DNA from: Providencia lanzhouensis
GTDB lineage: Bacteria > Pseudomonadota > Gammaproteobacteria > Enterobacterales > Enterobacteriaceae
DNA length: 64,000 nucleotides
Reading direction: 5' to 3'
Assembly (NCBI RefSeq): GCF_050469745.1
Contig: NZ_CP174123.1
Location: 1-64,000 of the forward strand
Of this stretch, positions 6,294-41,626 are shown piece by piece. The notes below the pieces were generated by a model. The model worked only from the letters and a program-made list of their open reading frames with translations. It was not told where the DNA came from and searched no databases. The translations under genes and the position numbers were made by a program. Position 1 is the stretch's first letter; every line of letters begins with the position of its first letter.

Positions 6294-9281
6294 ATGAACA
6301 AAATAACTCCTGCTGTATCGTTCAGTTTATTTGCTCTATTTAACACCCAGATTACCTTTGCAAACTCAGATTATATCGATGCCAGTAAATTCATCATTGA
6401 TCAGCGAAATCAGCGATTTGACGAACTAAAAAACCAAATCATCCCGCCGTACCCAGCCCCGCAGTCTCAAGCGGCGCAATGGGATAAAGACGTTAGCCAG
6501 CAAGCAACGCAATTAACAGGAAAGCGCAAAAAGAACGCTGAAAAAGATAAACAAAGCACACCAGAATATCTTTTTAACATTTACCTAGAATACGTATTTA
6601 ATAAAAAAGGGTTTAATTATAATGATTTTAAACAAATTAAAGCCTATAACCGTTTAAATAATTTATTCCATTTAGCCACCTTTGCAGATGACCCAATTCA
6701 AAACCGAGCTCGCTCAATGGATTTTATTCTCAAAGACTATTATTTACGTGGTCGCCCAAATCAAGTTCTCGATGATAAAGGCGAATATCTCCTAAACTAT
6801 GTCGATATTACAGGCTCTTCTTACCCAAGCGGACATACTTGGAATGGATTTAAACAAGCGGCTGTATTTGCCACAATTTTTCCAGAAAAAGGAGCTCAAT
6901 TTTTTGATAGAGCCATCGGCTACGGGGAAAGCCGTGTGATTGTCGGCGCACATTTCCCAACCGATACCATTGCCTCGCGCGCCGCCAATTATTATCTTCT
7001 CGCCCATTTACTGAAAGAGGATAAAACCGCCAATGCACTGATTAGCCAAGCCAAAGAAGTACGCCAAGAACTGAACACTCAATGCACCATCAATGAAAAA
7101 AAATGCAAACCACCAATAGGCTCACTTCCCTCTTTTAATGAAAACCTAGGTTATTACGCTAAGCAAAGTGAGCAGCCATCTCAGGCACTTCGCGTTGATC
7201 AAGTCCCTGCTGACGCCGCGTATTTGCTACGCTCTCGCTTTGCCTATCTTAATAAATCTCAATGGCAGCAAATTATTGCAGGCACCGCCTATCCCACTAA
7301 CTCTTTAGCGGGCTGGGAAGCTAAACAAAATCAACCCGAAAGCCACTGGGGGCTGATTAACTTACCGAAAGCCTATAAAGGGCCTACGCATTTCGCTGAA
7401 GATTGGGTCGTCAATCAACGGGTAACTCAAGACGACGTTGCAAACGTCGGCATTACCGATATTTGGAGTAATAACATCGATGGCAAAGGGCGGTTAATCA
7501 AACAAGGGGAAGGCTCATTAACCTTAGCTGGAATTAACCATTTTGCAGGGCTTGAAATACAGCAAGGCCGTGTGGTTTTAGTACAAGAAAACCACTTAAC
7601 AGGCCCCGTCAATGTCAAGGGTGGAAAGCTTGAGGTCAAAGACATCCTACATGCGCCAGTCAACGTCACCAATGGCACATTACAGCTCACTCACAGCATT
7701 AAAAATACAGTGACATTAAACCAAGGAGCCCAATTTATAGCTTCTGGCTTGGTTGATGACTTAGTGGTTAATAGCGGTGCTATCTTAACCCCTGGAGATA
7801 ATCTTAAAGACCCAACACGGCGTATGACGGTGAATAATACTGCTACCTTCCAACCCGGCAGTGCATTCCATGTGAGTCTTCAAACAACACACACACAGGA
7901 ATTTGATGCCCTACATGCTGGCGGTACTGTGACTATTAACGGCGGTAAGGTCAAAGTGTTCTTCGCTGAAGAATCACCGCCATTCAATGAACGTATACCA
8001 AATGAAGATGAAATTCAGGGGCGATTTCGAACCGAATACAACATTATTCGCGCCCCCAATATCCAAGGGAAATTTGATAGCATCGAACCTAACTACCTGT
8101 TTATTGGTACTACATTGAATTATGGTACTGATCCTCGCTCCCCCTCGATGAAACTGGTTACACTCAATGTCGGTCGTAGTGAGCTGGCTTTTGATTCATT
8201 TGCAAAAACGCCAAACCAAACCGCCATCGCTCACGTCCTTGAAGATCTTCCATTGAATAACACCCTGTATAAACGCTTAATTCTCAGCAAAACCACAGCA
8301 GGGGTTTACGACCTTCTTCACACTCTATCCCCACAAATTCATATCGATACCCTAGCTAGCCAATTGAATAACCATCGCCAATATCACGGTACGCTGCTGC
8401 AACAAACTCGCGTATCGGAAAACATCGTCAAAGAGCGTGGAGATAACCGTGGCAATGTGTGGGTAAATATTCCCTACCATTGGGACAGAACCCAAAGCGA
8501 TGGAAATGCTTCCGGCTTTACAAACAGCAATTATGGCGTGTTCTTAGGGACTGATAAGCATTTCTTCAATGATGACGTTATCTTTGGAATGAGCACCGGT
8601 TTTACCAAAAATTCCGTCTCTGGCGGAGTTGGTCATAGCCATAGTAACAACTATTATTTAGCCGCTTACGGTTCCCTGCAATTGGCACCAATCACCTTAC
8701 GCGCAGGGCTTGGACACACATGGCACACCATCAAGACCGATAGAACAGTCACTTCATCCATTTATTCCGATCACAATACCGCCGACTACAAAGGCAAAAC
8801 CAACCACCTGTTTATAGAAGCGACTTATCCGTGGAAATCGGCATTCATCAACGCCGAACCGTTTGCAAACTTTGCCTTTACCAATGCCGAAAGCCATGGA
8901 TTTAAAGAAAAAGGGGAAAAAACCTCGCTGGTGACAGGTCGCCAATCCCTCGATGCCACGACCACAACGCTGGGATTACGTTTAGATAACCAATGGAAAG
9001 TGGGCAATACATCCTCAATCGATGTACACGGGGAATTCGGCTGGCAGCATCAATATGATAAGCGGGAGCGTGAAATGGCTTTCCGATTCGCCCACCGAGA
9101 CCAGCTTGCACCACCGCTAAACTATCGCGGGATTAATGCGCCGAAAGATGGCATGGCTATCAAACTGGGCTCCAGCCTTCAGCTGACAGACAATTTCAAA
9201 CTGTCCATGGATTACAGCCAATTTACTGCTAAGGGATATTTAGAAAATAATCTTGATGCCAAATTGTTAGTGTCGTTTTAA
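6294..9281 (+). CDS. Autotransporter with N-terminal class A acid phosphatase (PAP2) passenger domain
   Basis: 995 aa with a signal peptide (MNKITPAVSFSLFALFNTQITFA|NS). All three class-A NSAP motifs are intact: KDYYLRGRP (KX6RP), PSGHT (PSGH) and SRVIVGAHFPTD (SRX5HX3D). A beta-helix-like repeat region (GGKLEVKD..., NGTLQLTH...) follows, then a C-terminal beta-barrel ending ...KLLVSF. The upstream intergenic region is very AT-rich. Confidence 0.85.
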   Translation: MNKITPAVSFSLFALFNTQITFANSDYIDASKFIIDQRNQRFDELKNQIIPPYPAPQSQAAQWDKDVSQQATQLTGKRKKNAEKDKQSTPEYLFNIYLEYVFNKKGFNYNDFKQIKAYNRLNNLFHLATFADDPIQNRARSMDFILKDYYLRGRPNQVLDDKGEYLLNYVDITGSSYPSGHTWNGFKQAAVFATIFPEKGAQFFDRAIGYGESRVIVGAHFPTDTIASRAANYYLLAHLLKEDKTANALISQAKEVRQELNTQCTINEKKCKPPIGSLPSFNENLGYYAKQSEQPSQALRVDQVPADAAYLLRSRFAYLNKSQWQQIIAGTAYPTNSLAGWEAKQNQPESHWGLINLPKAYKGPTHFAEDWVVNQRVTQDDVANVGITDIWSNNIDGKGRLIKQGEGSLTLAGINHFAGLEIQQGRVVLVQENHLTGPVNVKGGKLEVKDILHAPVNVTNGTLQLTHSIKNTVTLNQGAQFIASGLVDDLVVNSGAILTPGDNLKDPTRRMTVNNTATFQPGSAFHVSLQTTHTQEFDALHAGGTVTINGGKVKVFFAEESPPFNERIPNEDEIQGRFRTEYNIIRAPNIQGKFDSIEPNYLFIGTTLNYGTDPRSPSMKLVTLNVGRSELAFDSFAKTPNQTAIAHVLEDLPLNNTLYKRLILSKTTAGVYDLLHTLSPQIHIDTLASQLNNHRQYHGTLLQQTRVSENIVKERGDNRGNVWVNIPYHWDRTQSDGNASGFTNSNYGVFLGTDKHFFNDDVIFGMSTGFTKNSVSGGVGHSHSNNYYLAAYGSLQLAPITLRAGLGHTWHTIKTDRTVTSSIYSDHNTADYKGKTNHLFIEATYPWKSAFINAEPFANFAFTNAESHGFKEKGEKTSLVTGRQSLDATTTTLGLRLDNQWKVGNTSSIDVHGEFGWQHQYDKREREMAFRFAHRDQLAPPLNYRGINAPKDGMAIKLGSSLQLTDNFKLSMDYSQFTAKGYLENNLDAKLLVSF

Positions 9282-9378: not shown

Positions 9379-10485
9379 CTACAGCAGAATTCTCAACATA
9401 CGGCGCAGAGGCTCCGCAGCCCCCCACAGTAACTGATCGCCCACGGTAAACGCAGACAGATACTCAGGTCCCATGTTTAACTTACGCAGACGCCCTACTG
9501 GTGTGCTCAGAGTCCCCGTCACTGCCGCAGGAGTCAGTTCACGCATTGTAATTTCACGGTCATTCGGCACCACTTTCACCCACTCATTATGGGAAGCCAG
9601 CAGTTGCTCCACTTCATTCAGTGGCACATCTTTTTTCAGTTTCAGCGTGAATGCTTGGCTATGGCAGCGTAATGCGCCCACACGAACACATAAACCATCA
9701 ACCGGAATAATATTGCTGCCCGTTGCCAGAATTTTGTTGGTTTCTGCCTGCCCTTTCCACTCTTCGCGGCTTTGACCGTTTTCTAACGCTTTATCAATCC
9801 ACGGGATCAAACTGCCCGCTAGCGGAACACCGAACGCATCCGTTGGCATGGAACCACTGCGCGTAAAGTCTGTGACTTTTTTCTCGATTTCTAAGATGGC
9901 CGATGCCGGATTTTGCAGCTCTTTCGCCACTTGCGCGTGTAAAGAACCCATTTGTGACAACAGCTCACGCATATTGCGTGCACCCGCACCGGATGCCGCT
10001 TGATATGTAGCCACGGAAGCCCACTCAACCAAGTTATTCGCAAACAGACCGCCCAACGACATCAGCATTAAACTCACCGTACAGTTACCGCCGACGAAGG
10101 TCTTAATGCCTTTATTTAAGCCGTCTTGGATATGCTGATGGTTCACTGGGTCTAAAATAATAATCGCATCGTCTTTCATACGCAGTGCAGACGCGGCATC
10201 AATCCAGTAACCTTTCCAGCCCGCTTCACGTAATTTTGGATACACTTCATTGGTATAATCGCCGCCTTGGCAGCTAATAATAATATCCAGTGCGCTCAGT
10301 GCATCGATATCAAATGCATCTTGCAACGTGCTGCGATGACCACCAAAAACAGGCGCCTCAGCCCCATGCTGGGAGGTGGTAAAAAAGACCGGGTGAATAA
10401 CGTTAAAATCCCCTTCTTCTACCATTCTTTGCATCAATACGGAGCCGACCATTCCGCGCCAGCCAATAAACCCTACATTTTTCAT
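9379..10485 (-). CDS. asd: Aspartate-semialdehyde dehydrogenase
   Basis: Matches E. coli Asd along its length as recalled ([24 protein letters not shown]...LRRMLRILL). The ORF track starts 3 codons earlier (MKRM...); I placed the start at the Met equivalent to the E. coli start. Confidence 0.93.
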
Positions 10486-14705: not shown

Positions 14706-15344
14706 ATGAATTTGTTTTTAGAAAATTGCTTGGCTTTCCCAACCATTATCTTTAGCGGTTTACTGATTATTGTCCTGTTTTACTGGCTTTGTGCCGCTTT
14801 TGGTCTGTTAGATATTGATTTATTTAATATCGATACCGAATTGGATGCTGACGGCATCGATCTCACTGGCTTTGCTGGCTGGCTGACAAAACTTGGTTTA
14901 GCCGGAATTCCCGTCACCATTATCTTGACGCTATTCACCCTCTTCGGCTGGCTGATTAGCTACTTTGCTGCGCATTTATTCCTACGCTTTATTGATATGA
15001 CCTTGCTGCGTTACGCCGTTGGAGTCACGTCGCTAGTGATCACCGCCTTTATTTCCCTGCACTTAACCGCCATTTGCCTAAAACCCATCCGTAGCCGACT
15101 GGTTAATATTAATAAACCCAAAACGGTTCATCAGCTAATGGGAAAATTGGCAACCGTGCGCTCAGGGACTGTCACAGAACAAAATGGGGAAGCCACCTTA
15201 GAAGATGGCGGTGCGGGGCTGATTTTGCAGGTTAGAGCACCTAGCGCCGAAAATATTAAACGCGGGGATCGCGTCGTTATCATCAGTTATGACCCTCAAT
15301 CCCACAGTTACCAAGTTGTCACCGAGAACGAATTCAGGCAGTAA
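14706..15344 (+). CDS. yqiJ: NfeD-family membrane protein (YqiJ-like; N-terminal TM region plus C-terminal OB-fold)
   Basis: 212 aa with an N-terminal multi-TM segment and a soluble C-terminal beta-rich domain (…ATVRSGTVTEQNGEATLEDGGAGLILQVRAPSAENIKRGDRVVIISYDP…). It sits directly upstream of the flotillin gene, as in E. coli yqiJK. Confidence 0.75.
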   Translation: MNLFLENCLAFPTIIFSGLLIIVLFYWLCAAFGLLDIDLFNIDTELDADGIDLTGFAGWLTKLGLAGIPVTIILTLFTLFGWLISYFAAHLFLRFIDMTLLRYAVGVTSLVITAFISLHLTAICLKPIRSRLVNINKPKTVHQLMGKLATVRSGTVTEQNGEATLEDGGAGLILQVRAPSAENIKRGDRVVIISYDPQSHSYQVVTENEFRQ

Positions 15345-15418: not shown

Positions 15419-17620
15419 ATGGATTTGGCTGAATACATGCCTTTTTTAACGGTTGTTGGGGGAGTGATCATCATCATTCTTGGGTTCTTTGGTTTATTTA
15501 AAGCCTTCTACATCAAAGTCCCTCAAGGTACCGCTCTGATTGTCAACGACATGTCGTCACAACCAAAAGTGCATTTCACGGGTGCGTTAGTGTATCCCGT
15601 TATCTACAAGAAAGAGTTTATGCGCATTTCGCTGCTGACGCTGGAAGTGGATCGCCGTGGTAAAGACGGCTTAATTTGCCAAGATAATTTACGTGCAGAT
15701 ATCACTGTTGCCTTCTATCTGCGTGTTAATGAAACCACCGAAGACGTCTTAAAAGTAGCAAAAGCCATCGGTGTTGAGCGCGCCTCTGACCATCAAGCCG
15801 TCAGCGCCCTATTCAGCGCTAAATTCTCTGAAGCCCTGAAAACGGTTGGTAAGCAATTAGAATTAGCCAAACTGTTTGAAGACCGTCAAAGCTTCCGTGA
15901 CCGTATTGTTGATGTGATTGGTAAAGACCTTAATGGTTACGCGCTAGAAGACGTAGCAATCGACTATTTAGAACAAACGCCGAAATCTGCCCTCGATCCG
16001 AATAATATTTTCGACTCCGAAGGTATTCGCAAAATCACTGAAATTACCGCTATCCACAATATCGAAACTAACCAAAAAGAGCGCGACCAAGAGTTAGCTA
16101 TCAAAAAGAAAAACGTGGAAACCCGCGAAGCGAGCTTAGCATTAGAGCGCCAACAAGCCGACGCTGAAGCCCGTCAAAAACGTGAAATTGATAATATCCG
16201 TGCACGAGAACAAGCTGAAACCCTACGCGTTCAAGAAGAAGAGCGCCTCAAGTCAGAGCAAGCGCGTATTCAAACTCAGCAAGAAATTGAAATTCGTGAA
16301 GAAAACCGCATGCGTGAAGTGGAAGTGGCTCAACAGAACCGCACCCGCGCCGTGGCTATCGAAGAAGAGCGTGTCAACCGTGCTCGCGAGCTAGAAATTG
16401 TCGCCCGTGAACGTGAAGTTGAGCTGCAACGTATTGAAAAAGAAAAAGCGCTAGAAGAAGAACGTAAAAATATCTCTAACGTGATCCGCGAACGTGTTGC
16501 CGTCGAAAAAACCGTCGCGCAGGAAGAGGAACGTATCAAGGAAGTCCGCGAAATTTCAGAAGCTGAGCGTATGAAGCAAGTCACCGTGATCAACGCCCAA
16601 GCGGAAGCTGAAGAAGCCTTAGTCCGCCAGGTGAAAAAAGCCGAAGCCGATGAAGCAAGTGCCAAGCACCGTGCAGAAGAAATCAGTACTATGGCACAAG
16701 CAGAACTGGAAGCTTCCGCCAAACAAGCTGAAGCCAAAAAACGCTTAGCGGAAGGGATTGAAGCAGAACATGCAGCATTAGGCTTAGCAGAAGCCCGTGT
16801 TCGCCAAGCCACTGCCGAAGCTGAAGAGAAAGAAGGTCTGGTTCAAGCCAATATCACCGCGGAAAAACTGTTAGCCGAAGCTCGTGGTCTGAAAGAAAAA
16901 GGCTTAACCGAAGCGCAAGTGATGGAAGCTAAAGCGAACGCCGAACGCCAGCAAGGTTTTGCCGAAGCGAAAATTCTGGAAGAAAAATTGGCAGCGCAGG
17001 CTCGTGGTGAAGAACAACAAGCCAACGCGAAAGAAAAACTGGGCTTGGCAGATGCAAAAGTCTTGGAAGAAAAACTGGCAGCCCAAGCTCGCGGTGAAGG
17101 TCAATTAGGGGCAGCGCAAGCCGAAGTGATTCGCCAGCGTCTGAAAGCGGAAGCTGACGGTCTGACTGATAAATTCCAATCTATGGATCACCTCAGTGAT
17201 ACGGCTCGTTCACATGAAGAGTTCCGTATGCGCCTTGAGAAAGAGTTCGAGCAATCCATGGCATCCATTGAAGCGAATAAAGAAATTGCTCGCGAGCAAG
17301 CGGATGTCCTGGCTGCGGCACTGAGCAAAACCAACATCGAAATTGTGGGCGGTGATGGCGACTTCTTTAACACCTTCTCCAAAGCGCTGAGCTTGGGTAA
17401 AGCCGTTGATGGGTTTATGGATAAAAGTAGCTTTGCCAAAGATAACCTTGAAAAGTTAGTCAATCGAGTCACAGAAGAGAAGAAAATTGATATCGCGTCC
17501 TTACTGCAACACCCTGAAGTCAAAGATTTAATCAATGGTTTTATGGCTGCAAAAAGCGCACCACAAACAGCGAAAAACATCGTGAACAAACCCGTGTCTT
17601 ACGATGATAACCAAAGCTAA
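15419..17620 (+). CDS. yqiK: Flotillin-like SPFH/band-7 protein (YqiK-like) with an unusually long coiled coil
   Basis: 733 aa with an N-terminal TM segment and SPFH domain (residues ~30-200). A ~450-residue E/A/R/Q/K-rich coiled coil follows and contains a 29-aa tandem duplication. E. coli YqiK is 553 aa. Confidence 0.85.
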   Translation: MDLAEYMPFLTVVGGVIIIILGFFGLFKAFYIKVPQGTALIVNDMSSQPKVHFTGALVYPVIYKKEFMRISLLTLEVDRRGKDGLICQDNLRADITVAFYLRVNETTEDVLKVAKAIGVERASDHQAVSALFSAKFSEALKTVGKQLELAKLFEDRQSFRDRIVDVIGKDLNGYALEDVAIDYLEQTPKSALDPNNIFDSEGIRKITEITAIHNIETNQKERDQELAIKKKNVETREASLALERQQADAEARQKREIDNIRAREQAETLRVQEEERLKSEQARIQTQQEIEIREENRMREVEVAQQNRTRAVAIEEERVNRARELEIVAREREVELQRIEKEKALEEERKNISNVIRERVAVEKTVAQEEERIKEVREISEAERMKQVTVINAQAEAEEALVRQVKKAEADEASAKHRAEEISTMAQAELEASAKQAEAKKRLAEGIEAEHAALGLAEARVRQATAEAEEKEGLVQANITAEKLLAEARGLKEKGLTEAQVMEAKANAERQQGFAEAKILEEKLAAQARGEEQQANAKEKLGLADAKVLEEKLAAQARGEGQLGAAQAEVIRQRLKAEADGLTDKFQSMDHLSDTARSHEEFRMRLEKEFEQSMASIEANKEIAREQADVLAAALSKTNIEIVGGDGDFFNTFSKALSLGKAVDGFMDKSSFAKDNLEKLVNRVTEEKKIDIASLLQHPEVKDLINGFMAAKSAPQTAKNIVNKPVSYDDNQS
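16967..17100 (+). repeat. 87-bp (29-codon) in-frame tandem duplication inside the flotillin coiled coil
   Basis: gcgaaaattctggaagaaaaattggcagcgcaggctcgtggtgaag (16967..17012) is matched by gcaaaagtcttggaagaaaaactggcagcccaagctcgcggtgaag (17054..17099), an 87-nt offset. Protein repeat: AKILEEKLAAQARGEEQ... / AKVLEEKLAAQARGEGQ... Confidence 0.7.
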
Positions 17621-17740: not shown

Positions 17741-20536
17741 ATGTCAGAAACCCAAGATGTGAATCGCGAACAGGAAATTCTCGACAGTGCCGTCGCGGAA
17801 GGTGGTGCGTACGAAATATTACGCAAGCGCTTAACCGAACAAGGGCAGCAACTTCACCAAAAAGCAGCTCAACTCAACGACAGCCGGTTGACTGAATTTG
17901 GTCAAAGCCAGATGGACATTATCGGGCGTATCCGTATTCGTACCGAAAATAACTGCCAAGCAAGGGACATTGTCCGTGTCGGTGACTGGCTGCTATTTGG
18001 CTATAACGTTTTTCTGGGTCTGAAAAAAGAAACTCACATTGAAGATGTTTTTTCCTTATATCAACTCACTGAAAATGAAGGTGATTTTGATGTAATCTCT
18101 GTCCCTTACGAAGAGACATTCCTCAATGATACGCGCTTTGTTCAGGATTTTACTGAGCTATATACCTATTACAAAAACACGCAATTACTGCAATTGGTCG
18201 AGCGTGATGGCAAGCTGTTAGCCAGCTTCCAAATTGGTGATCGGTTAACCGACGTGCGTGTTTTCCGCTGGTCAATTTCCAGCGATAAATCCCGCATCGA
18301 ATACATCGATAACCGGGGTGAACGTGATATCGCCCTACCCCCCACCAATGATTTCGAATGGGTACGTACTACGCGGGAAAATACCGTTAATGGACGCTAT
18401 CCTCACATTAATATTCTCGATACCGTCTTTGTGGAAACCATCGGCGGCGACCTAACCATCAAATGTGAAAATAATACCGAAGATGGGTTGGGCATATACC
18501 GCGAAGCGGTACTCGATAAAAACCAATCCCTCGATGACGCCCAAATTGAATATGCTCAGACTGGCAGCCTAATTTTACTCAAAATCTTGCCATACCGCGA
18601 AGAGAGCTGGCGCTATCTGGTTTACAACATTCTGAATCAAACCGTTCACCGTATTGATGCCATAGGGCAAGCGTGCGTGCAGTTGCCGGAAGATCACGGA
18701 ATTATCTTCCCAGGGGGTTACTACCTGCAAAACGGGGAGTACAAAACCTTCGAGCAACCAATGGATGGCATGCGTTTTCGTCGTCTGCGCCGCTCACCCA
18801 ACGGGGAAGATGTGCTGTATGTGTTTTATTCCCCGAACCAAGGTCGTATCGCCCTTTTCAATTACAATTTAATTGAACGTAAACTTGCCGTACCATTAAT
18901 CGGTCATGGTTATGCCATGCTCGAAGATGGCAAAATGGTGCTGTTCGAAGGGGAAGGTGACGAAGCCACTCGCGTTCACCCTATGCAGGTGTGGCAAACC
19001 CCATTCTATTCTGACGAATTTGCCGATAAGCAGCCGCCACGGGGTGGGTTTCTTGGGCGTATCGGTAATGCCGATTTAGTCCGCGGGATCTCCGAAATTC
19101 TCCATGTCGCCAAAGAGATTGAAGGCAACCAAGTTTCCGTTTCCCGCTATGAACAGCTCAGCCAGCAACCTAAAAACTTGCTGGATATTTTCTATTGGTT
19201 TAATGACGAACAATGCTTAGGTATTGGCAAACTCTTAAAAGAGATCGCTCAAACCAGTGAGTTGGTACTCGACGAATACGAGAAAGTCGAAAGCATCCGC
19301 CAGCAATCCGTCAAATCAATGAATGAGGCGGTCACTCGCCAACGCTCCTTACTGTCCCTCACATTGCCTGAAGGATGGACGGATATTCAACAATTTGTAG
19401 ATGGGCTAAACGCCTTAAATGCCCAACAAGGGCATCTGATTTCATTGCGAGAATTCCGCTATATGGATCTCACAAAACTCAGTGAGATGGAAAATGAAAT
19501 CACCGAAGCACAGCAACGCGTTTCCCAAGGCACTGCGCAATTTCTTGCCAGCAACAAAGCTCTGCAACCGTTTAAAACTCAGCTCGCGACCTTTGAAGAG
19601 TTAATTGAAAAAGCACAAACCAGCGCGCAGTTAGATGTCCCAATGAATGACATGGAAAAAATGTCAGCGGATTTGGACATGCTCTCTAATTTAATGGCTT
19701 CATTGAGTTTTGATGATGTCACCTTACAGACCCATATCATCGATGCCATTTCGCACATTTATGCCCAGTTAAACCAGTCCCGCGCCCGTTTGCAGCAAAA
19801 ACGTAAATCTCAAACTAGCATTGAGAGCGTGGCGCAATTTGGGGCGCAGTTCCGCCTATTTAGCCAAGGTATCACCAACGCATTATCCCTCGCGACTGAC
19901 CCAGAACGTTGTGATGATCAGTTATCCCGATTGCTGGTTCAATTAGAAGAGCTAGAAAGTCAGTTTAGCCATCACGATGAATTTCTTGATGATATTCTGG
20001 CAAAACGCGAAGAATTACTGGAAACGTTTGAATCCCATAAACAAATCCTGATTGATGACCGCCAGCGCCGTTCGCAGAATTTATTAACGGCCGCCGACCG
20101 CTTATTAGAAAGCCTTCAACGCCGTACTGTACGCTTGCAAAACCAAGATGAACTGAATGCGTTTTTTGCTACCGACCCGCTCGCACAAAAAACCCGTGAA
20201 ATCATCGAGAAACTACGAGAAATCAACGATAACGTCAAAGCTGACGATATCGATGCCAGACTCAAAGCCTCTCGTGACCAAGCCATTCGCATTTTGCGGG
20301 ATAAAACCGATATCTTTGAAGATGGCGGCAACATTATTAAGCTGGGTCGCCACCGTTTCAGTGTTAACACCCAAGAGCTTGACCTGACTATCTTGCCAAA
20401 AGATAACCAACTGTGGGTGTACCTCACCGGAACGGATTTCCAAGAACCCATTGAGAACGCCGAACTTACACAGTTGCAACCTTATTGGACAGCCAACCTT
20501 GAATCTGAATCTGATACCGTTTATCGCGCTGAATAG
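17741..20536 (+). CDS. Large coiled-coil protein, N-terminal part (931 aa), same frame as the next ORF
   Basis: No recognisable catalytic motif. It ends at a TAG (20534..20536) that lies in the same reading frame as the downstream 698-aa ORF. Confidence 0.6.
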   Translation: MSETQDVNREQEILDSAVAEGGAYEILRKRLTEQGQQLHQKAAQLNDSRLTEFGQSQMDIIGRIRIRTENNCQARDIVRVGDWLLFGYNVFLGLKKETHIEDVFSLYQLTENEGDFDVISVPYEETFLNDTRFVQDFTELYTYYKNTQLLQLVERDGKLLASFQIGDRLTDVRVFRWSISSDKSRIEYIDNRGERDIALPPTNDFEWVRTTRENTVNGRYPHINILDTVFVETIGGDLTIKCENNTEDGLGIYREAVLDKNQSLDDAQIEYAQTGSLILLKILPYREESWRYLVYNILNQTVHRIDAIGQACVQLPEDHGIIFPGGYYLQNGEYKTFEQPMDGMRFRRLRRSPNGEDVLYVFYSPNQGRIALFNYNLIERKLAVPLIGHGYAMLEDGKMVLFEGEGDEATRVHPMQVWQTPFYSDEFADKQPPRGGFLGRIGNADLVRGISEILHVAKEIEGNQVSVSRYEQLSQQPKNLLDIFYWFNDEQCLGIGKLLKEIAQTSELVLDEYEKVESIRQQSVKSMNEAVTRQRSLLSLTLPEGWTDIQQFVDGLNALNAQQGHLISLREFRYMDLTKLSEMENEITEAQQRVSQGTAQFLASNKALQPFKTQLATFEELIEKAQTSAQLDVPMNDMEKMSADLDMLSNLMASLSFDDVTLQTHIIDAISHIYAQLNQSRARLQQKRKSQTSIESVAQFGAQFRLFSQGITNALSLATDPERCDDQLSRLLVQLEELESQFSHHDEFLDDILAKREELLETFESHKQILIDDRQRRSQNLLTAADRLLESLQRRTVRLQNQDELNAFFATDPLAQKTREIIEKLREINDNVKADDIDARLKASRDQAIRILRDKTDIFEDGGNIIKLGRHRFSVNTQELDLTILPKDNQLWVYLTGTDFQEPIENAELTQLQPYWTANLESESDTVYRAE

Positions 20537-20581
20537 CTCGCGTACTCCATCATCTATGCCGCAGCAAAACGCCAAGATGGT

Positions 20582-22678
20582 TTGGATTACGACACCCTAA
20601 AAAGTGCGCTGTCTGCCCCTGAAAAAATCGACAAACTGGTGCGTGATTTTGCGGCTCCACGCTACAAAGAAGGCTACGAAAAAGGGATCCACGACCACGA
20701 CGCTATCGCGATATTGAAAAAGCTGATCCCGATTGGTGAAAGCGCGGATTTACTGCGCTTCAACCCAACAGCTCGCGCCATTGCGGCGATTTTTTGGCAT
20801 CACATTCAAAGCAACGAATACCCTGCCCAATGGCCAGAACGAGCCAGAACCGCGATGAATATCCGCCAGCTATTCAATAACGATGATGCCCTTTTAGATC
20901 TTCAAGCGGAGATCGAGGCAGATGTCAGCTTATTCCTGCAAGATAATCCAATTAATTGCCAAGCTCATGAGCAAGCTCAAGCTGCGGAATACCTCAGTTT
21001 TGCGTTAGCCAGAACGCCGATTGAATTGGTGTACAGCAAATATGCGCGGGACTTAGTGGCAGCACTACAAACGCGCTTAGAAGAAGCCCATATGTGGCTG
21101 GATTTCAATCATTCACAGCAAAACCTTGGCACTCGCTATGCTCAGCGCTGGGCGCTGTTGCAAAATTGGCTGCAAGGGCTGTGTTCGATTGACGAATTTG
21201 CACATTTACGTCCATACATTCCAGGCGCCATCGCCATTATTATCTTAGATAAAATGGCATCGGCACGTTATAGCGAAGCCGATTTATACTTTAAAGTTAC
21301 TGGATTACTGGGGGATCACCCGACAATCCACAACCAAACTCTCTCGTTAAGTTTGGATGACTTTTTCAGTCGAATGCGCGAACAGCGCAAGCAATTTATT
21401 CCAGCCTTCCGTAAATACCAAGCACTGCGTCAGCGCATTGTGAGTGAAGAGCGCAGCCGCCTAAAACTTCATGAGTTCAAAGCTAAGCCACTGAGCTCAT
21501 TTGTGCGTAACAAGCTGATCAATGACGTCTATTTACCGATTATCGGTGACAACATGGCGAAGCAAATTGGCGCTCTAGGCGAAAACAAGCGTACCGATTT
21601 AATGGGCTTGTTACTGATGATCTCCCCGCCAGGTTACGGTAAAACGACCCTGATGGAGTACGCGGCTGACCGCCTTGGTTTGATCTTTATGAAGATTAAT
21701 GGTCCTGCGCTTGGGCATGATGTGCTGTCCCTCGACCCAGAGCAAGCCCCGAATGCTACCGCCAGACAAGAGCTGGAAAAACTAAACCTCGCCCTCGAAA
21801 TGGGCAACAACGTGATGCTGTATGTGGATGATATTCAACATACTCACCCTGAATTTTTACAGAAATTTATCTCCCTGTGTGATGGAACCCGTCGCATCGA
21901 AGGGGTATGGAAAGACAAAACCAAAACCTACGATATGCGCGGTAAAAAATTCTGTGTTGTCATGGCGGGTAACCCGTATACCGAATCTGGCGAAGTGTTC
22001 CGTATCCCTGATATGCTCGCCAACCGTGCGGATATTTATAACCTGGGTGAAGTGCTCGGTGGGATGGATGATGCCTTTGCATTGAGCTACATAGAAAACA
22101 GCCTGACCTCAAACCCAGTATTAGCACCGTTGGCGCTGCGCGATTTAAATGATTTGTATTTGCTGGTGGATAAAGCCATGGGCAAATCAGTCTCCACTAA
22201 TGCACTCAGCTACCCGTATTCCGATGCGGAAGTAAATGAAATTACTGCGGTTATTTCCCGATTACTCAGCCTGCGCGATGTGGTTCTGAAGGTAAACCAG
22301 CAATATATTGCCAGTGCCGCACAGTCCGATAAATATCGAACCGAGCCGGCATTCCGCCTGCAAGGCAGCTACCGAAATATGAACAAGCTCAGCGAGAAAG
22401 TCTCTTCCGTTATGAATGATGATGAATTAGAGAGATTGCTGGATGACCATTATCTTGGGGAAGCGCAATTATTAACGACAGGTGCTGAAGAGAACTTATT
22501 GAAGCTGGCAGAATTACGCGGAAGGCTGAATGAGAAAGATGCAGCACGCTGGCAGCAAATCAAGAAAGATTTCTTGCGTAACAAAGCATTAGGTGGTGAT
22601 AATGCCGATGTGGGCGACCGCGTTGTCACTCAGCTCGCCCAACTGGTTGAAAGCGTACAATCTCTCGGACATCGATAA
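20582..22678 (+). CDS. MoxR-like AAA+ ATPase, C-terminal part of the giant ORF (ORF-track start is TTG)
   Basis: 698 aa. Walker A LMISPPGYGKTTLMEY, Walker B VMLYVDDIQ, and a MoxR/AAA_5-type sensor region VVMAGNPYTESGEVFRIPDMLANRADIY. It shares a frame with 17741..20536 (both start positions ≡ 2 mod 3), separated only by TAG plus 15 sense codons. There is no SD before the TTG. Confidence 0.6.
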   Translation: MDYDTLKSALSAPEKIDKLVRDFAAPRYKEGYEKGIHDHDAIAILKKLIPIGESADLLRFNPTARAIAAIFWHHIQSNEYPAQWPERARTAMNIRQLFNNDDALLDLQAEIEADVSLFLQDNPINCQAHEQAQAAEYLSFALARTPIELVYSKYARDLVAALQTRLEEAHMWLDFNHSQQNLGTRYAQRWALLQNWLQGLCSIDEFAHLRPYIPGAIAIIILDKMASARYSEADLYFKVTGLLGDHPTIHNQTLSLSLDDFFSRMREQRKQFIPAFRKYQALRQRIVSEERSRLKLHEFKAKPLSSFVRNKLINDVYLPIIGDNMAKQIGALGENKRTDLMGLLLMISPPGYGKTTLMEYAADRLGLIFMKINGPALGHDVLSLDPEQAPNATARQELEKLNLALEMGNNVMLYVDDIQHTHPEFLQKFISLCDGTRRIEGVWKDKTKTYDMRGKKFCVVMAGNPYTESGEVFRIPDMLANRADIYNLGEVLGGMDDAFALSYIENSLTSNPVLAPLALRDLNDLYLLVDKAMGKSVSTNALSYPYSDAEVNEITAVISRLLSLRDVVLKVNQQYIASAAQSDKYRTEPAFRLQGSYRNMNKLSEKVSSVMNDDELERLLDDHYLGEAQLLTTGAEENLLKLAELRGRLNEKDAARWQQIKKDFLRNKALGGDNADVGDRVVTQLAQLVESVQSLGHR

Positions 22679-23256
22679 TGCAAACTTGGCTAAGCCCGCG
22701 AATTAAATTACTGATTACCCTTGCGGGTTTGCTGATCGCTATTCAAATCGCCAATAGTTTAAGTGGCTACGCGCTTGTTGGGTTCGGCATCCAACCAAGA
22801 ACGCTGCACGGGCTGGTGGGGATTATCTTCGCCCCACTGATCCACGGTGATTGGGCACATCTTCTGAGTAATCTGCCGCCGTTACTGGTTTTAAGCGCCC
22901 TGCTGCTGCATGATTCCATTCGAAAATATGCTTATGCCAGCGCGTTTATTATTGTGGTTGGCGGCTTGATTGTCTGGCTAGTGGGCAGAAATGCGCTGCA
23001 CATTGGCGCTAGCGGCTGGATTTTTGGGCTTTGGGGCTTATTGATTGCCCAAGGTTTTTTCCGCCGCAAACTGTTAGATATCGTTATCGCCCTGTTAGTA
23101 CTGTTCTATTTTGGTGCGATGGCGAGCGGGTTATTGCCTGTTCACCAGCAAATATCGACAGAATCCCATATTGCCGGTGCTATCGCCGGAATTGCCTATG
23201 CATGGTTAGCCAATAAAAAATTAAAAGCGACGCCGCCGACTACCCTTTCAAAGTAA
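22678..23256 (+). CDS. Short rhomboid-family intramembrane serine protease
   Basis: 192 aa, about 6 TM. Catalytic Ser is in GASGWIFGLWG (the GxSG motif) and catalytic His in AHIAGAIAGIAYAW, the arrangement of GlpG. Its ATG overlaps the upstream stop (ATAATG). Confidence 0.8.
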   Translation: MQTWLSPRIKLLITLAGLLIAIQIANSLSGYALVGFGIQPRTLHGLVGIIFAPLIHGDWAHLLSNLPPLLVLSALLLHDSIRKYAYASAFIIVVGGLIVWLVGRNALHIGASGWIFGLWGLLIAQGFFRRKLLDIVIALLVLFYFGAMASGLLPVHQQISTESHIAGAIAGIAYAWLANKKLKATPPTTLSK

Positions 23257-27852: not shown

Positions 27853-28785
27853 ATGAAGAAAATAAGTCATGAGTATACAGGTAAAATACTGCAACCACAT
27901 ATTGAACAAAACCAATCCGCTTTGGCGAAACCTAAAAATAAAAAAAACGGGTTTATAGAGAGAGTAAACAGGTTGTTTAATACCTGCTTGTTTAACACAT
28001 TGTTAAAACGCCCCAAGAAAACAAAAAATACAGAAATCATCCCTTCCCATCAAAGTTTCGTAAAGCTGACAATACCAGAGAATCCTTCTCCACAAAAAAT
28101 AGAAAAAAATACGAATTTAGCGCCTAATGATATACATATTGAGCCTATAATCGCAAAAATAGTACCAAGCGAAATAGACCAGTTCACAGAAAAGTTGCAT
28201 CGCCTCAATATCATCTTTAAAAATGATGCGTTCGGCGCTGATCATCGACCTATCTTTTTAGTCAAAAATCACTCGACATGTCGCGCGCGCTCCCTCAGCA
28301 AACACAATGAACTTGGTGAGAAGGAATATGACACGCTCACCCTCAACATGCGTCATTATCTTGGTAAAGGGGAATATGGAACCGCCTATCGCGTGGGTAA
28401 CTTTGCGATTAAAATTCCTCATCGCGATTTAAACTTTAAATACAATAAATATGCGAAATATGATCGCTGCGCCAGAGTATTAAATGAGGTAAATCAAGAT
28501 ATTAACTTTGCACGATCTACTACGCTCGCAAATGGCAATGCCATTTTAGTCACTAAGTTTATTGATGGGAGATCGATAACAGGTAAGGAGGCTTCTGGTT
28601 TTGTTGAATCCCGGGGACGCACTCTTTTTGATCATGGCTCCGAAGGCAACGTAAGAAAAGATAGGCAGAATAACCTATTTTTAATTGATGCTGATTTTGC
28701 TGCGCAACCTAACCAGCTAAATCGCACCCTGTCTATAGGTACCATTAAAATCTATAAGCGTTATGAAAATAACGATATCCATTAG
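27853..28785 (+). CDS. Protein-kinase-like protein (atypical, OspG/NleH/RIO-like motifs) in an AT-rich islet
   Basis: 310 aa. Gly-rich loop LGKGEYGTAYRV (GxGxxG), VAIK-like Lys (FAIKIP), Glu in ARVLNEV, a catalytic-loop-like DHGSEGNVRKD, and LIDADFA in the DFG position. The N-terminal ~150 aa are low-complexity and K/N-rich. Local GC is well below the neighbouring genes. Confidence 0.55.
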   Translation: MKKISHEYTGKILQPHIEQNQSALAKPKNKKNGFIERVNRLFNTCLFNTLLKRPKKTKNTEIIPSHQSFVKLTIPENPSPQKIEKNTNLAPNDIHIEPIIAKIVPSEIDQFTEKLHRLNIIFKNDAFGADHRPIFLVKNHSTCRARSLSKHNELGEKEYDTLTLNMRHYLGKGEYGTAYRVGNFAIKIPHRDLNFKYNKYAKYDRCARVLNEVNQDINFARSTTLANGNAILVTKFIDGRSITGKEASGFVESRGRTLFDHGSEGNVRKDRQNNLFLIDADFAAQPNQLNRTLSIGTIKIYKRYENNDIH

Positions 28786-30482: not shown

Positions 30483-31775
30483 ATGACAATACAAACATCT
30501 GAAATTACATCTGTCTCCTCAAAACGCACGACCTTTAAAGTCATGTTGGTTTGCTGGCTAAGCATTTTATTTGAAGGTTATGACGTGGGGGTGATGGGTG
30601 CAGTTTTACCCACACTCTCTGAATATAAAGAGTGGAATTTAACCCCTATTGAATTAGGCGCCTTGAGCAGTTACACCCTTGTGGGAATGTTCTTCGGTGC
30701 TTTTATTATCGGAACGTTAAGCGAGTTATATGGTCGACGACGCATGCTACTAATCTGCGTTACGCTATTTTCGTCCACCATGTTAGCCACCGCTTTAGCG
30801 CCAACACCTTGGTTTTTTGGATTAATGCGTTTTATCGGCGGAATTGGACTTGGGGGCGTGATCCCCGTAGCCGCGGCTCTCACTATTGAATATTCACCAA
30901 CTGAAAAACGGTCGTTTAACTATGCCATTATGTACTCAGGCTACTCTCTGGGTATCTTATGTGCTGCGCTAGTGGCGATTGCGATTCTTAGCCAATTTGG
31001 TTGGCGTGGTGTCATGATGATAGGGTCATTGCCTTTGTTATTAATTTGGCCAATGTCCCGCCTATTGCCTGAATCTATTGAATACCTGAATAACCGAGGG
31101 CAACACGAAAAAGCGAGAAAACTGGCGGAGAAACTTGAAGTTACCTATCACGAACCTGTGAAACAAGAAAAGCAGGCTTCCCGTAGCTTAAAAGAAGTTG
31201 TCGCGATTATCTTTTCCAAAGATTACCTGCGAGCAACCTGCTGTTTTTGGGTCGCTCTGTTCTGTGGTGGCTTCATCGTTTACGGCTTAAATACGTGGCT
31301 GCCATCCATTATGCGTAAAGAAGGTTATGATCTCGGCTCCAGCTTAACATTCTTAGTGGTGTTCAGTTTATCTTCTGCGCTAGGCGGGTTATTCCTCGGG
31401 AAAGTCGCCGATAAATGTGGCGCTCGCGGTACAGTTGCATTCTTCTTTATGCTAGGTGCAATGGGTATTGGATTGATGGTCTTCAAGCAAAATATCTATA
31501 TGAATTATTTACTAGTGGGCCTCGCGGGGATTGGTTGTATTTCTGCGCCATTAATTTTGACGGGCTATGTCGCCCATTTCTATCCATCCAGTGTGCGGGC
31601 TTCTGCAACAGGTTGGACAATGAGTATTTCCCGTGTAGGTGCCATGTCTGGTCCCATGTTTGGCGCTTATATTGCCAGCCTTGGGGTCGCCAGCAGTTGG
31701 AACTTTGCCGCGTTCTCTGCGGTGACGGTAATAGGCGGTATTGCCGTAATGCTACTGCCAAGTAAACGCTTATAA
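30483..31775 (+). CDS. MFS transporter (aromatic-acid/metabolite:H+ symporter-like, 12 TMS)
   Basis: 430 aa with MFS signatures (GRRRMLLICVTLF; sugar-transporter-like loop motif). Confidence 0.75.
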   Translation: MTIQTSEITSVSSKRTTFKVMLVCWLSILFEGYDVGVMGAVLPTLSEYKEWNLTPIELGALSSYTLVGMFFGAFIIGTLSELYGRRRMLLICVTLFSSTMLATALAPTPWFFGLMRFIGGIGLGGVIPVAAALTIEYSPTEKRSFNYAIMYSGYSLGILCAALVAIAILSQFGWRGVMMIGSLPLLLIWPMSRLLPESIEYLNNRGQHEKARKLAEKLEVTYHEPVKQEKQASRSLKEVVAIIFSKDYLRATCCFWVALFCGGFIVYGLNTWLPSIMRKEGYDLGSSLTFLVVFSLSSALGGLFLGKVADKCGARGTVAFFFMLGAMGIGLMVFKQNIYMNYLLVGLAGIGCISAPLILTGYVAHFYPSSVRASATGWTMSISRVGAMSGPMFGAYIASLGVASSWNFAAFSAVTVIGGIAVMLLPSKRL

Positions 31776-31788
31776 ACCCAAAAACAAA

Positions 31789-31818
31789 ATCCCCTCGGTA
31801 ATTTCGAGGGGATTTTTA
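31789..31818. terminator. Bidirectional terminator between the MFS gene (+) and ulaD (-)
   Basis: Stem atcccctcg / cgaggggat with loop gtaattt, followed by ttttt. Confidence 0.7.
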
Positions 31819-31828
31819 TCAATACCAA

Positions 31829-32473
31829 TTACCAGAAACGAGCAATTTGTTCACGCAGAGCTTCTGCGGTGGCTTTTCCTTTTTCACCGACCAATGCGCG
31901 CCCAGCAATAAAGGCTTTGGCTTTGATACCTTCAAAAAGATGAATATCTTCCGGCACAATCCCGCCAGTTATCGACAGTTCGAGACCTAAATCAGAAAGT
32001 TGGCGCATTTTGGTGAGATCTTCAGGTCCCCAGCCCACGCCAGCGAGCTCAGCATCACGAGAACGATGGTAAATCGCCTGTTTGATCCCTAAATCTACCC
32101 AGCGCTGAGCATCGTCTAATGTCCAGTTACCATACAGCTCAATTTGGATTTCACGTCCAAATTCATCCGCCACTTTTTTACATGCCGTGATAGTGGCAAT
32201 ATGTGCCGCTGCTGAAACCGTGATCCAATCCGCACCTGCTTCGAACGCCATTTTCGATAAAATCGCACCGCCATCCGTGGTTTTCATATCGCAAACAATA
32301 ATGTGTGATGGATGATTTTTACGTAGCGTTGAAACTGCATTCATACCTTCCGCAAAAGCCAAAATAGTACCAATTTCAATCACATCAACAAAAGACTCCA
32401 CATTATCAGCAACCGCCAGCGCATCTTTCAGATTGGTTTGGTCTAATGCAATTTGAATTAAAGGTTTAGTCAT
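31829..32473 (-). CDS. ulaD: 3-keto-L-gulonate-6-phosphate decarboxylase (UlaD/SgbH)
   Basis: 214 aa, collinear with E. coli UlaD as recalled (…QIALD…DIIEVGT…YHRSRDA…ITGGI…FIAGR). Confidence 0.88.
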   Translation of the reverse strand: MTKPLIQIALDQTNLKDALAVADNVESFVDVIEIGTILAFAEGMNAVSTLRKNHPSHIIVCDMKTTDGGAILSKMAFEAGADWITVSAAAHIATITACKKVADEFGREIQIELYGNWTLDDAQRWVDLGIKQAIYHRSRDAELAGVGWGPEDLTKMRQLSDLGLELSITGGIVPEDIHLFEGIKAKAFIAGRALVGEKGKATAEALREQIARFW

Positions 32474-32523
32474 TTGATTATCCTAGTGTTTTAGATTAAA
32501 TCGGGTATCTGGTGAATAACTGC

Positions 32524-32991
32524 TTAAGCCAATGCGGCATCAATCACCTGATAGACCTCGTCTGCGCTGGTGCAGCGGCGAATTTTATCGAGATCAATCC
32601 CCGTTTCGCTCTCTTCATCATCCAGTACTTGAGTCACTTCCATTAAGCCTTCCATATGTTCATCAGAAGAACTTCCCGCGAGGGTAATAAGGACATCCAC
32701 TGGCTCACTTTCCCCATCAAATACGATCGGTTCTTTTAATGTCACCAAGGCAAATGCGGTTTTTAAAACGCCATTTTCTGGGCGGGCATGAGGTAAGGCT
32801 AAATGAGGTGCAATACAGATATAAGGGCCTAACTCTTTGACGCTGCTAATAATGGCGTCATGGTAATCCGGCAAAATCGCCCCAGATGCGATGAGCATAT
32901 CGGTGCCAATCTTAATCGCGTCCTGCCAATTATCCGCTGAGGCATGTAATTTAATGGAGTTGTTATCCATTAGAGATTGTTTGAAACCCAT
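32524..32991 (-). CDS. ulaC: PTS ascorbate-family EIIA component
   Basis: 155 aa; a PTS EIIA(Mtl/Fru-type) domain with His in the ...CIAPHLALPHARPE context; position as in ulaABC. Confidence 0.8.
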   Translation of the reverse strand: MGFKQSLMDNNSIKLHASADNWQDAIKIGTDMLIASGAILPDYHDAIISSVKELGPYICIAPHLALPHARPENGVLKTAFALVTLKEPIVFDGESEPVDVLITLAGSSSDEHMEGLMEVTQVLDDEESETGIDLDKIRRCTSADEVYQVIDAALA

Positions 32992-33057
32992 GACATTGCT
33001 CTCCTATCGTCATGGGCATACATCACTGAATCCCCATGACAAATTTAGTTATTGGAT

Positions 33058-38597: not shown

Positions 38598-38771
38598 CCA
38601 CGTCGCCTTCTGCTGATTTTTATTGTTGTTTATTATTGCTCAATACTGCATCAAGAAAATTAAGTATACGTGAAATTGATAGCGAATAGATGCATGCAAA
38701 AGCAACTAATTAGCATCGGATTGTTATAGTTCAGTAGGGAAATTTTAATGGAGTGTAAGAATAGAGAAGCA

Positions 38772-38805
38772 ATAAAAAGCCGGTGTTCTTTTACAGAACA
38801 CCGGC
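38772..38805 (-). terminator. Displaced glmS rho-independent terminator (separated from glmS by the Tn7 insertion)
   Basis: Minus-strand hairpin gccggtgttct-gtaaa-agaacaccggc followed by UUUUUAUU. Removing Tn7 plus one copy of the TSD places this hairpin ~25 nt after the glmS stop codon. Confidence 0.75.
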
Positions 38806-38808
38806 TGG
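38804..38808. repeat. Left copy of the 5-bp target-site duplication GCTGG
   Basis: GCTGG immediately precedes the Tn7-L terminus TGTGGGCGGACA (38809). The identical GCTGG at 52299..52303 immediately follows Tn7-R (…GTCCGCCCACA). Confidence 0.85.
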
Positions 38809-40722: not shown

Positions 40723-40743
40723 AAAACGCTCCTTGTCTTGCAA

Positions 40744-41036: not shown

Positions 41037-41044
41037 GGCGTCAT

Positions 41045-41623: not shown

Positions 41624-41626
41624 ATC

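Follow-up and report, generated by a model that had tools for sequence, protein, structure and literature searches.

The 64,000-nucleotide stretch of the Providencia lanzhouensis genome analysed here (contig NZ_CP174123.1, positions 1 to 64,000; hereafter the window) carries a cluster of four genes on the + strand, the third of which is interrupted by an in-frame stop codon. Specifically, i) the first gene (14706..15344) encodes a 212-aa protein, probably a membrane protein to judge from a weak Pfam match to YqiJ_N that falls below threshold (E 0.006; 17.1 bits, where the cut-off is 23), and keeps its place in the gene order of all relatives; ii) the second (15419..17620) encodes a 733-aa protein named 'flotillin family protein' or YqiK-like in the sources, which has no Pfam or NCBIfam match and occurs in identical form in at least 23 other assemblies; iii) the third, interrupted gene spans 17741..22678; and iv) the fourth (22678..23256) encodes a rhomboid protease of 192 aa (Pfam Rhomboid, 2.9e-19) whose ATG overlaps the TAA of the preceding gene by one base (TAATG) behind a weak Shine-Dalgarno sequence (-3.2 kcal/mol). 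PADLOC, run on the products of all four genes, detected no defence system, and a promoter and terminator scan of 14.2-24.0 kb returned counts at or below shuffle expectation.

The initial annotation had described a TAG dividing one long frame, followed by 15 sense codons and a TTG that the ORF track chose as a start despite the lack of a Shine-Dalgarno sequence, with an out-of-frame ATG nearby, and the sequence bears out each of these points. The TAG at 20534..20536 separates ORF 17741..20536 from ORF 20582..22678, both on the + strand and in the same frame (20582-17741 = 2841 = 3 x 947), and the joined frame comprises 1,645 codons followed by a natural TAA stop. Behind the TAG lie the 15 sense codons LAYSIIYAAAKRQDG and then the TTG (20582..20584, + strand), picked by a mechanical ORF finder but in origin an internal leucine codon of the ancestral gene; its predicted duplex with the anti-Shine-Dalgarno sequence has an energy of -0.7 kcal/mol, compared with -2.4 to -9.2 kcal/mol for 14 accepted gene starts in the window (10 of them at -4.0 or stronger) and with -5.4 kcal/mol at 17741, where the N-terminal ORF has a recognisable Shine-Dalgarno sequence. 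Over the following 600 nt no in-frame ATG, GTG, or TTG codon surpasses -4.0 kcal/mol, and the ATG at 20577 opens a mini-ORF of 7 codons ending at TAA 20598-20600. Since the feature is a single site, the existence of the TAG is not something to be weighed against chance; we have judged it instead by comparison with relatives, and the outcome is unambiguous.

The translation, the Pfam domains, and a comparison with a 1,645-aa P. alcalifaciens protein (P0001), from which the window copy differs at 3 residues including the stop, together identify 17741-22678 as the Providencia copy, or orthologue, of a DUF3686-DUF7902-AAA+ protein called 'DNA repair ATPase' in databases. The N-terminal ORF (931 aa, + strand) contains DUF3686 (PF12458; residues 38-485, positions 17852-19195, E 5.2e-201 over the full length of the model) and DUF7902 (PF25472; residues 606-690, positions 19556-19810, E 3.5e-25). 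The remaining 713 codons (20537..22678, + strand) match the Pfam models AAA_5, AAA, and AAA_22, with the AAA+ module at 21611-21991, a Walker A motif PPGYGKTT at residues 1296-1303 (21626-21649), and a Walker B motif VMLYVDDIQ at residues 1358-1366 (21812-21838); most residues of both motifs are invariant in the homologue alignment. The AAA+ module is still encoded, and it sits after the stop. In an AlphaFold2 model of residues 841-1645, a helical domain with a pLDDT of about 90 reaches to about 21460, and residue 932 falls within its first helix, 929-942; on this model the lost Tyr932 stands where a domain predicted with confidence begins, and not in a linker. The 'DNA repair' in the family name is an annotation label, and the function of the ATPase family is not established. 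No paper was found in a literature search for DUF3686, nothing relevant in a search combining flotillin, rhomboid, and "DNA repair ATPase", no match in a PDB sequence search with the intact protein, and nothing at E <= 1e-3 in a Foldseek search of the PDB with the model of residues 841-1645. The Foldseek resemblance to RuvB, NorQ/CbbQ, and Cdc6 was weak and of a kind generic to AAA+ proteins, and it pointed to no closer family.

The initial annotation had also proposed a single ancestral gene of about 1,645 codons, and suggested aligning orthologues to see whether they are uninterrupted and keep a sense codon at this position; they are, and they do. Among the best 120 of 6,711 homologues found at E <= 1e-20, all 120 are single ORFs (1,644-1,918 aa in 119 and 1,577 aa in one), and residue 932 is tyrosine in 113 and phenylalanine in the other 7. 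The surrounding columns are near-invariant in these same 120 proteins (Y928 in 119; R929, E931, and L933 in all 120), so that the stop breaks a conserved motif, VYRAE[Y/F]LAYS (20519..20548, + strand), and the lost tyrosine belongs to its near-invariant core, YRAE[Y/F]LA. At the DNA level the motif could be found at 49 of 51 species-representative loci, where codon 932 is TAT in 24, TAC in 23, and TTC in 2, and the only interruptions of the ORF at the 51 loci are contig ends and, in one Xenorhabdus locus, a frameshift. Codon 932 is a sense codon in every relative, both at the 49 species loci with the motif and in 12 close strains.

A natural two-gene form of the family, with a ribosome-binding site of its own for the AAA+ part, would have argued for a genuine division of the gene, and none was found at the 51 species loci or among the best 150 representatives, clustered at 50% identity, of the C-terminal half. 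At least 1,500 aa in length, with about 920 residues upstream of the match, are 72 of these 150, and the N-termini of the shorter entries lie anywhere between -426 and +804 relative to the site and do not cluster at it. While family members are single polypeptides of about 1,650-1,750 aa, the window copy is cut at codon 932 and all its relatives are single ORFs, and we therefore regard the window locus as a disrupted member of the family, that is, a pseudogene.

Conservation of the neighborhood extends beyond Providencia to P. aeruginosa. A P. aeruginosa protein (P0083) has the same domain order (PF12458, PF25472, and the AAA+ module) and 64% identity over its full length, and both in the Providencia relatives and in P. 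aeruginosa the ATPase gene is immediately preceded by two genes, one encoding about 212 aa and the other a flotillin-like product of about 700 aa (about 690-733 aa across the two loci). The order in P. aeruginosa is DUF2170, PspA-like, 213 aa, 688 aa, 1,746 aa, PLD-like, YaeQ, recJ, and M4 protease, the 213-aa gene occupying the position of the 212-aa gene of Providencia. The two loci differ in that Providencia has a rhomboid gene downstream where P. aeruginosa has the PLD-like gene, has no PspA-like gene immediately upstream, and, in the window, has an ATPase gene cut at codon 932. Counting from lasB as PA3724 and recJ as PA3725, we take the P. aeruginosa counterpart to be PA3728, adjoining the bac cluster PA3729-PA3732. 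PA3730 and PA3729 are proteins of 23 kDa and 76 kDa (PMC2587700), sizes that match the 213-aa and 688-aa genes of the P. aeruginosa locus. An Arc-pathway paper was discarded as a lead on the cluster, PA3729 being there merely a background protein in pull-downs and the paper thus irrelevant.

Close relatives of the strain narrow the change to a single base. The intact 1,645-codon gene is present in about 20 near-identical Providencia assemblies, direct reading of the bases at 12 loci, 11 of which are near-identical, gave TAC for codon 932 every time, and the base at 20536 differs from that of every one of the 20 relatives covering the position. Ten assemblies with an identical flotillin-like protein encode the intact 1,645-aa product, as do 9 of 10 with an identical rhomboid protein, the tenth being cut by a contig end. 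One relative (L001) differs from the window by 26 substitutions and no indels over 13.3 kb and has TAC at the site of the TAG; the nearest (L061) differs at only 2 bases of the 4,938-nt gene, 19249 and 20536, the latter C to G. Against strain DSM 30120 the N-terminal part has a dN/dS of 0.02 and the C-terminal part one of 0.014, indicating that both halves of the gene are strongly constrained in the species. Only two bases of the gene are private to the window among the first 12 relatives, too few for a dN/dS test of decay after the stop; Q1225K, considered as a window-specific sign of relaxed selection, was dropped because it is common to L055, L060, and L061 and the column is variable.

We conclude that a private C-to-G transversion at 20536 has very probably turned TAC (Tyr932) into an amber TAG (20534..20536, + strand) within a gene of 1,645 codons, an ordinary, recent, and gene-inactivating event. 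The initial annotation had left open a nonsense mutation, a sequencing error, and a stop that is read through; the substitution is by far the most likely of the three, and programmed read-through is not supported. The locus has the two hallmarks of a nonsense pseudogene, in that the stop stands where relatives keep a conserved sense codon and the part downstream of it has no translation signals of its own. Ribosomes would stop at codon 932 and release a 931-residue fragment, the expected product of the mutant allele, which would keep DUF3686, DUF7902, and the coiled-coil region and would be without the helical domain and the AAA+ motor; a fragment so reduced would probably have lost the ATPase function, making the locus a young pseudogene. 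Full-length protein would be at most a trickle, arising from near-cognate read-through of a UAG followed by C. Translation of the rhomboid gene is probably coupled to that of the ATPase gene, its ATG overlapping the natural stop behind a weak Shine-Dalgarno sequence, and would then probably be reduced too. As to Rho-dependent polarity, the highest C/G ratio in 78-nt windows downstream of the premature stop is 1.9, which does not reach the 95th percentile for the whole window (2.1), and there is no clear rut-like site, so that the start/stop overlap is what speaks for polarity on the rhomboid gene.

It is unlikely that the strain truly has TAC and that position 20536 was miscalled as G in the consensus. 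None of the relatives examined shares the allele, and an exact look-up in the protein collection found no record of the 931-aa product, of four candidate C-terminal products, or of a private TetR variant; the genome of the window thus seems to be absent from the collection, from which it follows both that these negatives say nothing about how others have annotated the gene and that the G has no confirmation from an independent assembly of the same strain. Moreover, the isolated private substitutions near the locus and outside recombination patches are all non-silent (13206, intergenic; 20536, nonsense; 27417, Ile/Met; none synonymous), a pattern that fits very recent mutations as well as it fits errors and comprises far too few sites to decide between them. 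Against an error, the record looks finished, beginning at dnaA-dnaN-recF-gyrB; the comparison with L001 is free of indels; in the 40.5 kb where at least 8 relatives could be compared there is just one private indel, of one base and not within a listed ORF, and no private frameshift in a gene; the genes flanking the ATPase gene match those of relatives in length; and position 20536 lies neither in a homopolymer nor, as far as we can read from the sequence, in a methylation motif (GATC or CCWGG). Once the recombined patches are set aside, private SNPs number about 10 per 40 kb, which is far above the substitution error rate usual in polished assemblies.

We consider it quite unlikely that the amber allele is anything but a dead end, either because read-through of UAG-C or an amber suppressor tRNA encoded elsewhere in the genome gives a low, possibly condition-dependent level of full-length ATPase, or because loss of the AAA+ half is adaptive in a host-associated lineage. 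PA3728 is among the genes repeatedly mutated in cystic-fibrosis isolates (PMC8190622), the equation of that gene with the P. aeruginosa counterpart being our own identification.

Very unlikely is the narrower possibility that the stop is leaky or suppressed to the point that near-cognate tRNAs or an amber suppressor tRNA supply enough full-length ATPase to matter, as in a 'pseudo-pseudogene'. The closest precedents are bacterial pseudogenes that arose by one nonsense mutation, among them the translated pseudo-pseudogenes described by Feng et al. 2022 (PMC9122581) in Salmonella Typhi and Paratyphi A, which, like the gene described here, have a single in-frame stop in an otherwise intact and recently functional gene. 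Among the Salmonella pseudogenes with proteomic read-through the stop is UAG in 68.6%, and at the +4 position cytosine is enriched (37.5%) and uracil depleted (PMC9122581), so that the UAG-C of the window is a combination over-represented in that set; a supF-type suppressor, moreover, would presumably put the original tyrosine back. In contrast, the base at -1 is A here whereas C is enriched in the Salmonella set, the mutation is a C-to-G transversion of a tyrosine codon where those of Salmonella are mostly C-to-T and G-to-A transitions, and protein levels from the Salmonella pseudogenes are low (PMC9122581). A stop that occurs in no relative cannot be a selected, programmed signal, and there is no stimulatory RNA structure (fold z-score 0.03) and no RNA family in an Rfam scan of the window, results that speak against a recoding signal such as a stable structure behind the stop or a SECIS or PYLIS-like element. 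Nor is the codon reassigned, as TAG ends 9 of 48 large ORFs selected in the window (TAA ends 37 and TGA 2), and a tRNA scan found no tRNA gene in the window. Programmed recoding, as in selenocysteine UGA, pyrrolysine UAG, and leaky viral stops, does resemble the present case in having an in-frame stop with a long open frame behind it, but the stop described here lacks conservation and a structure behind it, is a codon other than UGA, and belongs to a type that terminates other genes of the window. With neither conservation of the stop nor an accompanying signal, programmed read-through is not supported, while unprogrammed trace read-through at UAG-C is possible.

That the N-terminal and AAA+ modules are separate functional proteins, the second made by ribosomes that re-initiate at TTG 20582 or at some other start within the gene, is extremely unlikely: two long ORFs do stay open, and terminating ribosomes sometimes re-initiate close to a stop without a Shine-Dalgarno sequence, but neither the TTG nor any in-frame start within 600 nt has such a sequence, the nearest downstream ATG is out of frame and soon closed, the stop interrupts an invariant motif and a predicted helix rather than a linker, no relative is split at codon 932, and the 150 C-terminal representatives include no class of proteins of about 700 aa starting at the site.

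With the private nonsense mutation as our preferred reading, the two ORFs are best annotated together, as a single disrupted gene or pseudogene that contains an internal stop, and the 698-aa "AAA+ protein" that begins with the TTG should be kept from spreading through databases. To find a nonsense mutation private to one isolate is routine in itself. The strain would also be a naturally occurring knock-out or truncation mutant for an ATPase that is large, widespread, and functionally uncharacterised, and could be handy for study of the cluster of flotillin-like, ATPase, and, in the Providencia loci examined, rhomboid genes; were the amber allele leaky or adaptive, the strain would still be a natural mutant with which to probe this uncharacterised cluster.

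The window contains a second interrupted gene, intI2, the class 2 integron integrase gene of Tn7 (39745-40743, minus strand), which also has an internal stop. As in the ATPase gene, one in-frame stop yields two ORFs in the same frame (...IPAIK*LIEQ...), and the two halves match positions 1-173 and 216-315 of the integron-integrase model. The intI2 stop is a fixed and long-known feature of Tn7-type class 2 integrons and travels with the element, unlike the stop in the ATPase gene, which occurs in a single strain and in none of the relatives.

The ORFs at 17741..20536 (931 amino acids) and 20582..22678 occupy a single reading frame, with a TAG at 20534-20536 between them. The joined frame (17741..22678, plus strand; 1,645 codons, the stop being codon 932) encodes DUF3686 at its N-terminus (PF12458, E 5e-201), then DUF7902, and at its C-terminus an AAA+ module with Walker A (PPGYGKTT, residues 1296-1303) and Walker B (VMLYVDDIQ, residues 1358-1366) motifs. 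In a 5.8-billion-protein collection, 6,711 sequences qualify as homologues at E <= 1e-20. Each of the 120 listed is a single protein (119 span 1,644-1,918 residues and one has 1,577); the list is headed by Providencia alcalifaciens, and the usual source name is "DNA repair ATPase". "DNA repair" is an annotation label and not an established function of the family; a literature search for DUF3686 found no paper mentioning it, PADLOC matched none of the four proteins of the gene cluster described below, a PDB sequence search with the intact ATPase gave no match, and a Foldseek search with the ATPase model gave no significant one.

Comparison with relatives bears out the initial annotation, which had read the two ORFs as one ancestral gene: orthologues are single ORFs with a sense codon where the window has its stop. 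Specifically, i) the stop falls within a near-invariant motif, Y-R-A-E-[Y/F]-L-A, in the 120-homologue alignment, where its column holds Tyr in 113 sequences and Phe in the other 7; ii) among 51 loci from a scan limited to a single genome for each species, 24 have TAT, 23 TAC, and 2 TTC, and the ORFs are unbroken over about 1,650-1,870 codons except for loci ending at a contig edge and one frameshifted Xenorhabdus szentirmaii locus; iii) the 1,645-residue homologue P0001 differs from the window translation only at Tyr932 (stop in the window), R1136H, and K1225Q, and its contig from the window DNA by 26 substitutions and no indel over 13.3 kb, with TAC opposite TAG; and iv) about 20 more near-identical Providencia assemblies were retrieved by exact match to the flotillin-like and rhomboid proteins of the window, and all that cover the locus carry an intact 1,645-residue gene. 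TAC was present in all 12 loci whose bases were read directly, those of DSM 30120 and 11 near-identical strains; the nearest relative, the Logan assembly of SRR30592933, differs at 2 bases of the 4,938-nt gene, 19249 (synonymous) and 20536, and the G at 20536 is unlike all 20 relatives covering the site. Given the intact ORFs and sense codon of the relatives, the ancestral state was one gene and the event a single C-to-G transversion, very probably an ordinary amber mutation, TAC to TAG, private to this strain.

In X. szentirmaii DSM 16338, the representative genome for its species, a frameshift interrupts the orthologue (L041, about 8,700-8,745) around residues 895-914, not far from the Providencia stop position. 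The collection also includes an intact X. szentirmaii protein (P0037, 1,647 residues); the frameshift is an independent disruption, or else a sequencing error. A contig labeled as the actinomycete Phytomonospora sp. NPDC050363 (NZ_JBFAKK010000027.1) encodes a homologue with 90% identity to the Providencia ATPase, probably through contamination of its assembly.

The main alternative to mutation is a base-call error at 20536, and here the grounds are indirect, although they favor a real mutation. Exact look-ups of the strain's own proteins returned no record in the searchable collection. Within the 40.5 kb of the window covered by at least 8 relatives, no gene has a private frameshift; a private indel occurs once, a single base that falls in no listed ORF. 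Window-private substitutions are found mainly in two recombination-like patches, and about ten isolated ones lie outside them. Genuine private SNPs are thus far commoner than the substitution errors expected in a polished assembly. We estimate roughly that a few per cent of random substitutions in coding sequence give a stop. The patches, at 9,451-10,035 (asd) and 30,546-33,560, are dense clusters of private substitutions which look imported by recombination because their flanks are almost identical to relatives; in asd most of them lie a multiple of three bases apart, which fits third codon positions. The window opens with dnaA, dnaN, recF, and gyrB, so it represents the initial 64 kb of a finished chromosome from a strain of the P. 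alcalifaciens group. Values of dN/dS against DSM 30120 are 0.02 and 0.014 for the two gene halves; with both under such strong purifying selection within the species, the gene is normally functional and the lesion must be young.

A genuine two-gene arrangement can be rejected, given the lack of a Shine-Dalgarno sequence, a break within a folded region, and the absence of a protein class starting at the junction among the best 150 representatives. The sequence confirms that from the TAG to the TTG at 20582 there are 15 sense codons (LAYSIIYAAAKRQDG), that the out-of-frame ATG at 20577 opens a mere 7-codon mini-ORF, and that the TTG has no Shine-Dalgarno: the 16S rRNA 3′ end, paired with the 17 nt upstream of every candidate start, gives -0.7 kcal/mol here and +0.4 to -4.0 kcal/mol for the remaining in-frame ATG, GTG, and TTG codons of the next 600 nt, compared with -2.4 to -9.2 kcal/mol for 14 accepted gene starts in the window (10 at -4.0 or stronger). 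Residues 841-1645 of the intact protein were modeled with AlphaFold2 (35-sequence alignment, mean pLDDT 70); residue 932 lies in helix 929-942, the first of a helical domain that is predicted with pLDDT around 90 and extends to about residue 1240, ahead of the AAA+ core. Helix placement and motif conservation together show that the stop cuts a folded, constrained region and not a linker between domains, where a natural gene split could be tolerated. When the downstream 713 residues were run with HMMER against the full set of 1.84 billion cluster representatives, 420 proteins matched at E <= 1e-30; of the best 150, 72 have at least 1,500 residues, and in these the match is preceded by a median of 920 residues. 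The shorter entries begin anywhere from 426 residues inside the site to 804 before it, spread evenly, and no class starts at the junction. We read the shorter entries as fragments off short contigs.

Programmed read-through can be rejected since i) no relative carries the stop, so a signal around it cannot be the product of selection; ii) shuffled sequence gives folds as stable as that of the surrounding 141 nt (z-score 0.03), and scans of the window found no Rfam family and no tRNA gene; and iii) TAG is a normal terminator in the window (37 TAA, 9 TAG, and 2 TGA among 48 selected large ORFs). The stop is followed by C, and UAG-C is the leak-prone context; Salmonella pseudogenes with proteomic evidence of read-through have UAG in 68.6%, +4 C enriched and +4 U depleted, and low protein levels (PMC9122581). 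A trace of full-length ATPase is therefore plausible, but would be incidental.

The expected product in this strain is a 931-residue fragment that lacks both the helical domain and the ATPase motor, and the two ORFs should be annotated as one disrupted gene. The rhomboid ATG overlaps the natural ATPase stop (TAATG) and its Shine-Dalgarno is weak (-3.2 kcal/mol); loss of upstream ribosomes probably lowers rhomboid translation. No clear rut-like C-rich tract was found.

The ATPase is the third gene of a conserved plus-strand cluster, after a 212-residue protein with a weak YqiJ_N match (14706..15344) and a 733-residue protein (15,419-17,620), and before the rhomboid protease (22678..23256). Sources call the second protein "flotillin family protein" or YqiK, a name without profile support here because no Pfam or NCBIfam model matched at E <= 0.01. 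In Pseudomonas aeruginosa the gene order around the orthologue (64% identity) is DUF2170, PspA-like, 213 residues, 688 residues, ATPase, PLD-like, YaeQ, recJ, M4 protease. Since lasB is PA3724 and recJ PA3725, this order makes the orthologue PA3728, adjoining the biofilm-associated cluster PA3729-PA3732. Published sizes of the P. aeruginosa cluster proteins fit this placement (PMC2587700), and one paper lists PA3728, an ATPase, as mutated in three longitudinal studies of cystic fibrosis (PMC8190622).

Elsewhere in the window, a 310-residue ORF without a Pfam match (27,853-28,785), downstream of a TetR gene, is called at 310, 290, or 211 residues in close strains, and the MFS transporter gene at 30483-31775 is called as two genes (205 and 221 residues) in GCA_000527275.1 (18,887-20,166 of locus L090), another strain-private disruption in the same neighborhood. 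About 13.7 kb of DNA (38,597-52,324) downstream of glmS (52324-54156, minus strand) is extra relative to ten close relatives, where glmS directly abuts a 431-residue Na/sulfate-symporter-family gene. The insert, at the classic Tn7 integration site just downstream of glmS (attTn7), is a Tn7-type transposon encoding TnsA (273 residues), a TnsB-size ORF (702, no Pfam match), TnsC (555), TnsD (508), and TnsE (538). Its class 2 integron carries sat2 (41045-41569) and aadA1 (41627-42415), with no dfrA1-sized ORF between integrase and sat2. The integrase (39,745-40,743, minus strand) is a second window gene split by a single in-frame stop (...IPAIK*LIEQ...), the well-known internal stop of intI2, into halves matching integron-integrase model positions 1-173 and 216-315.
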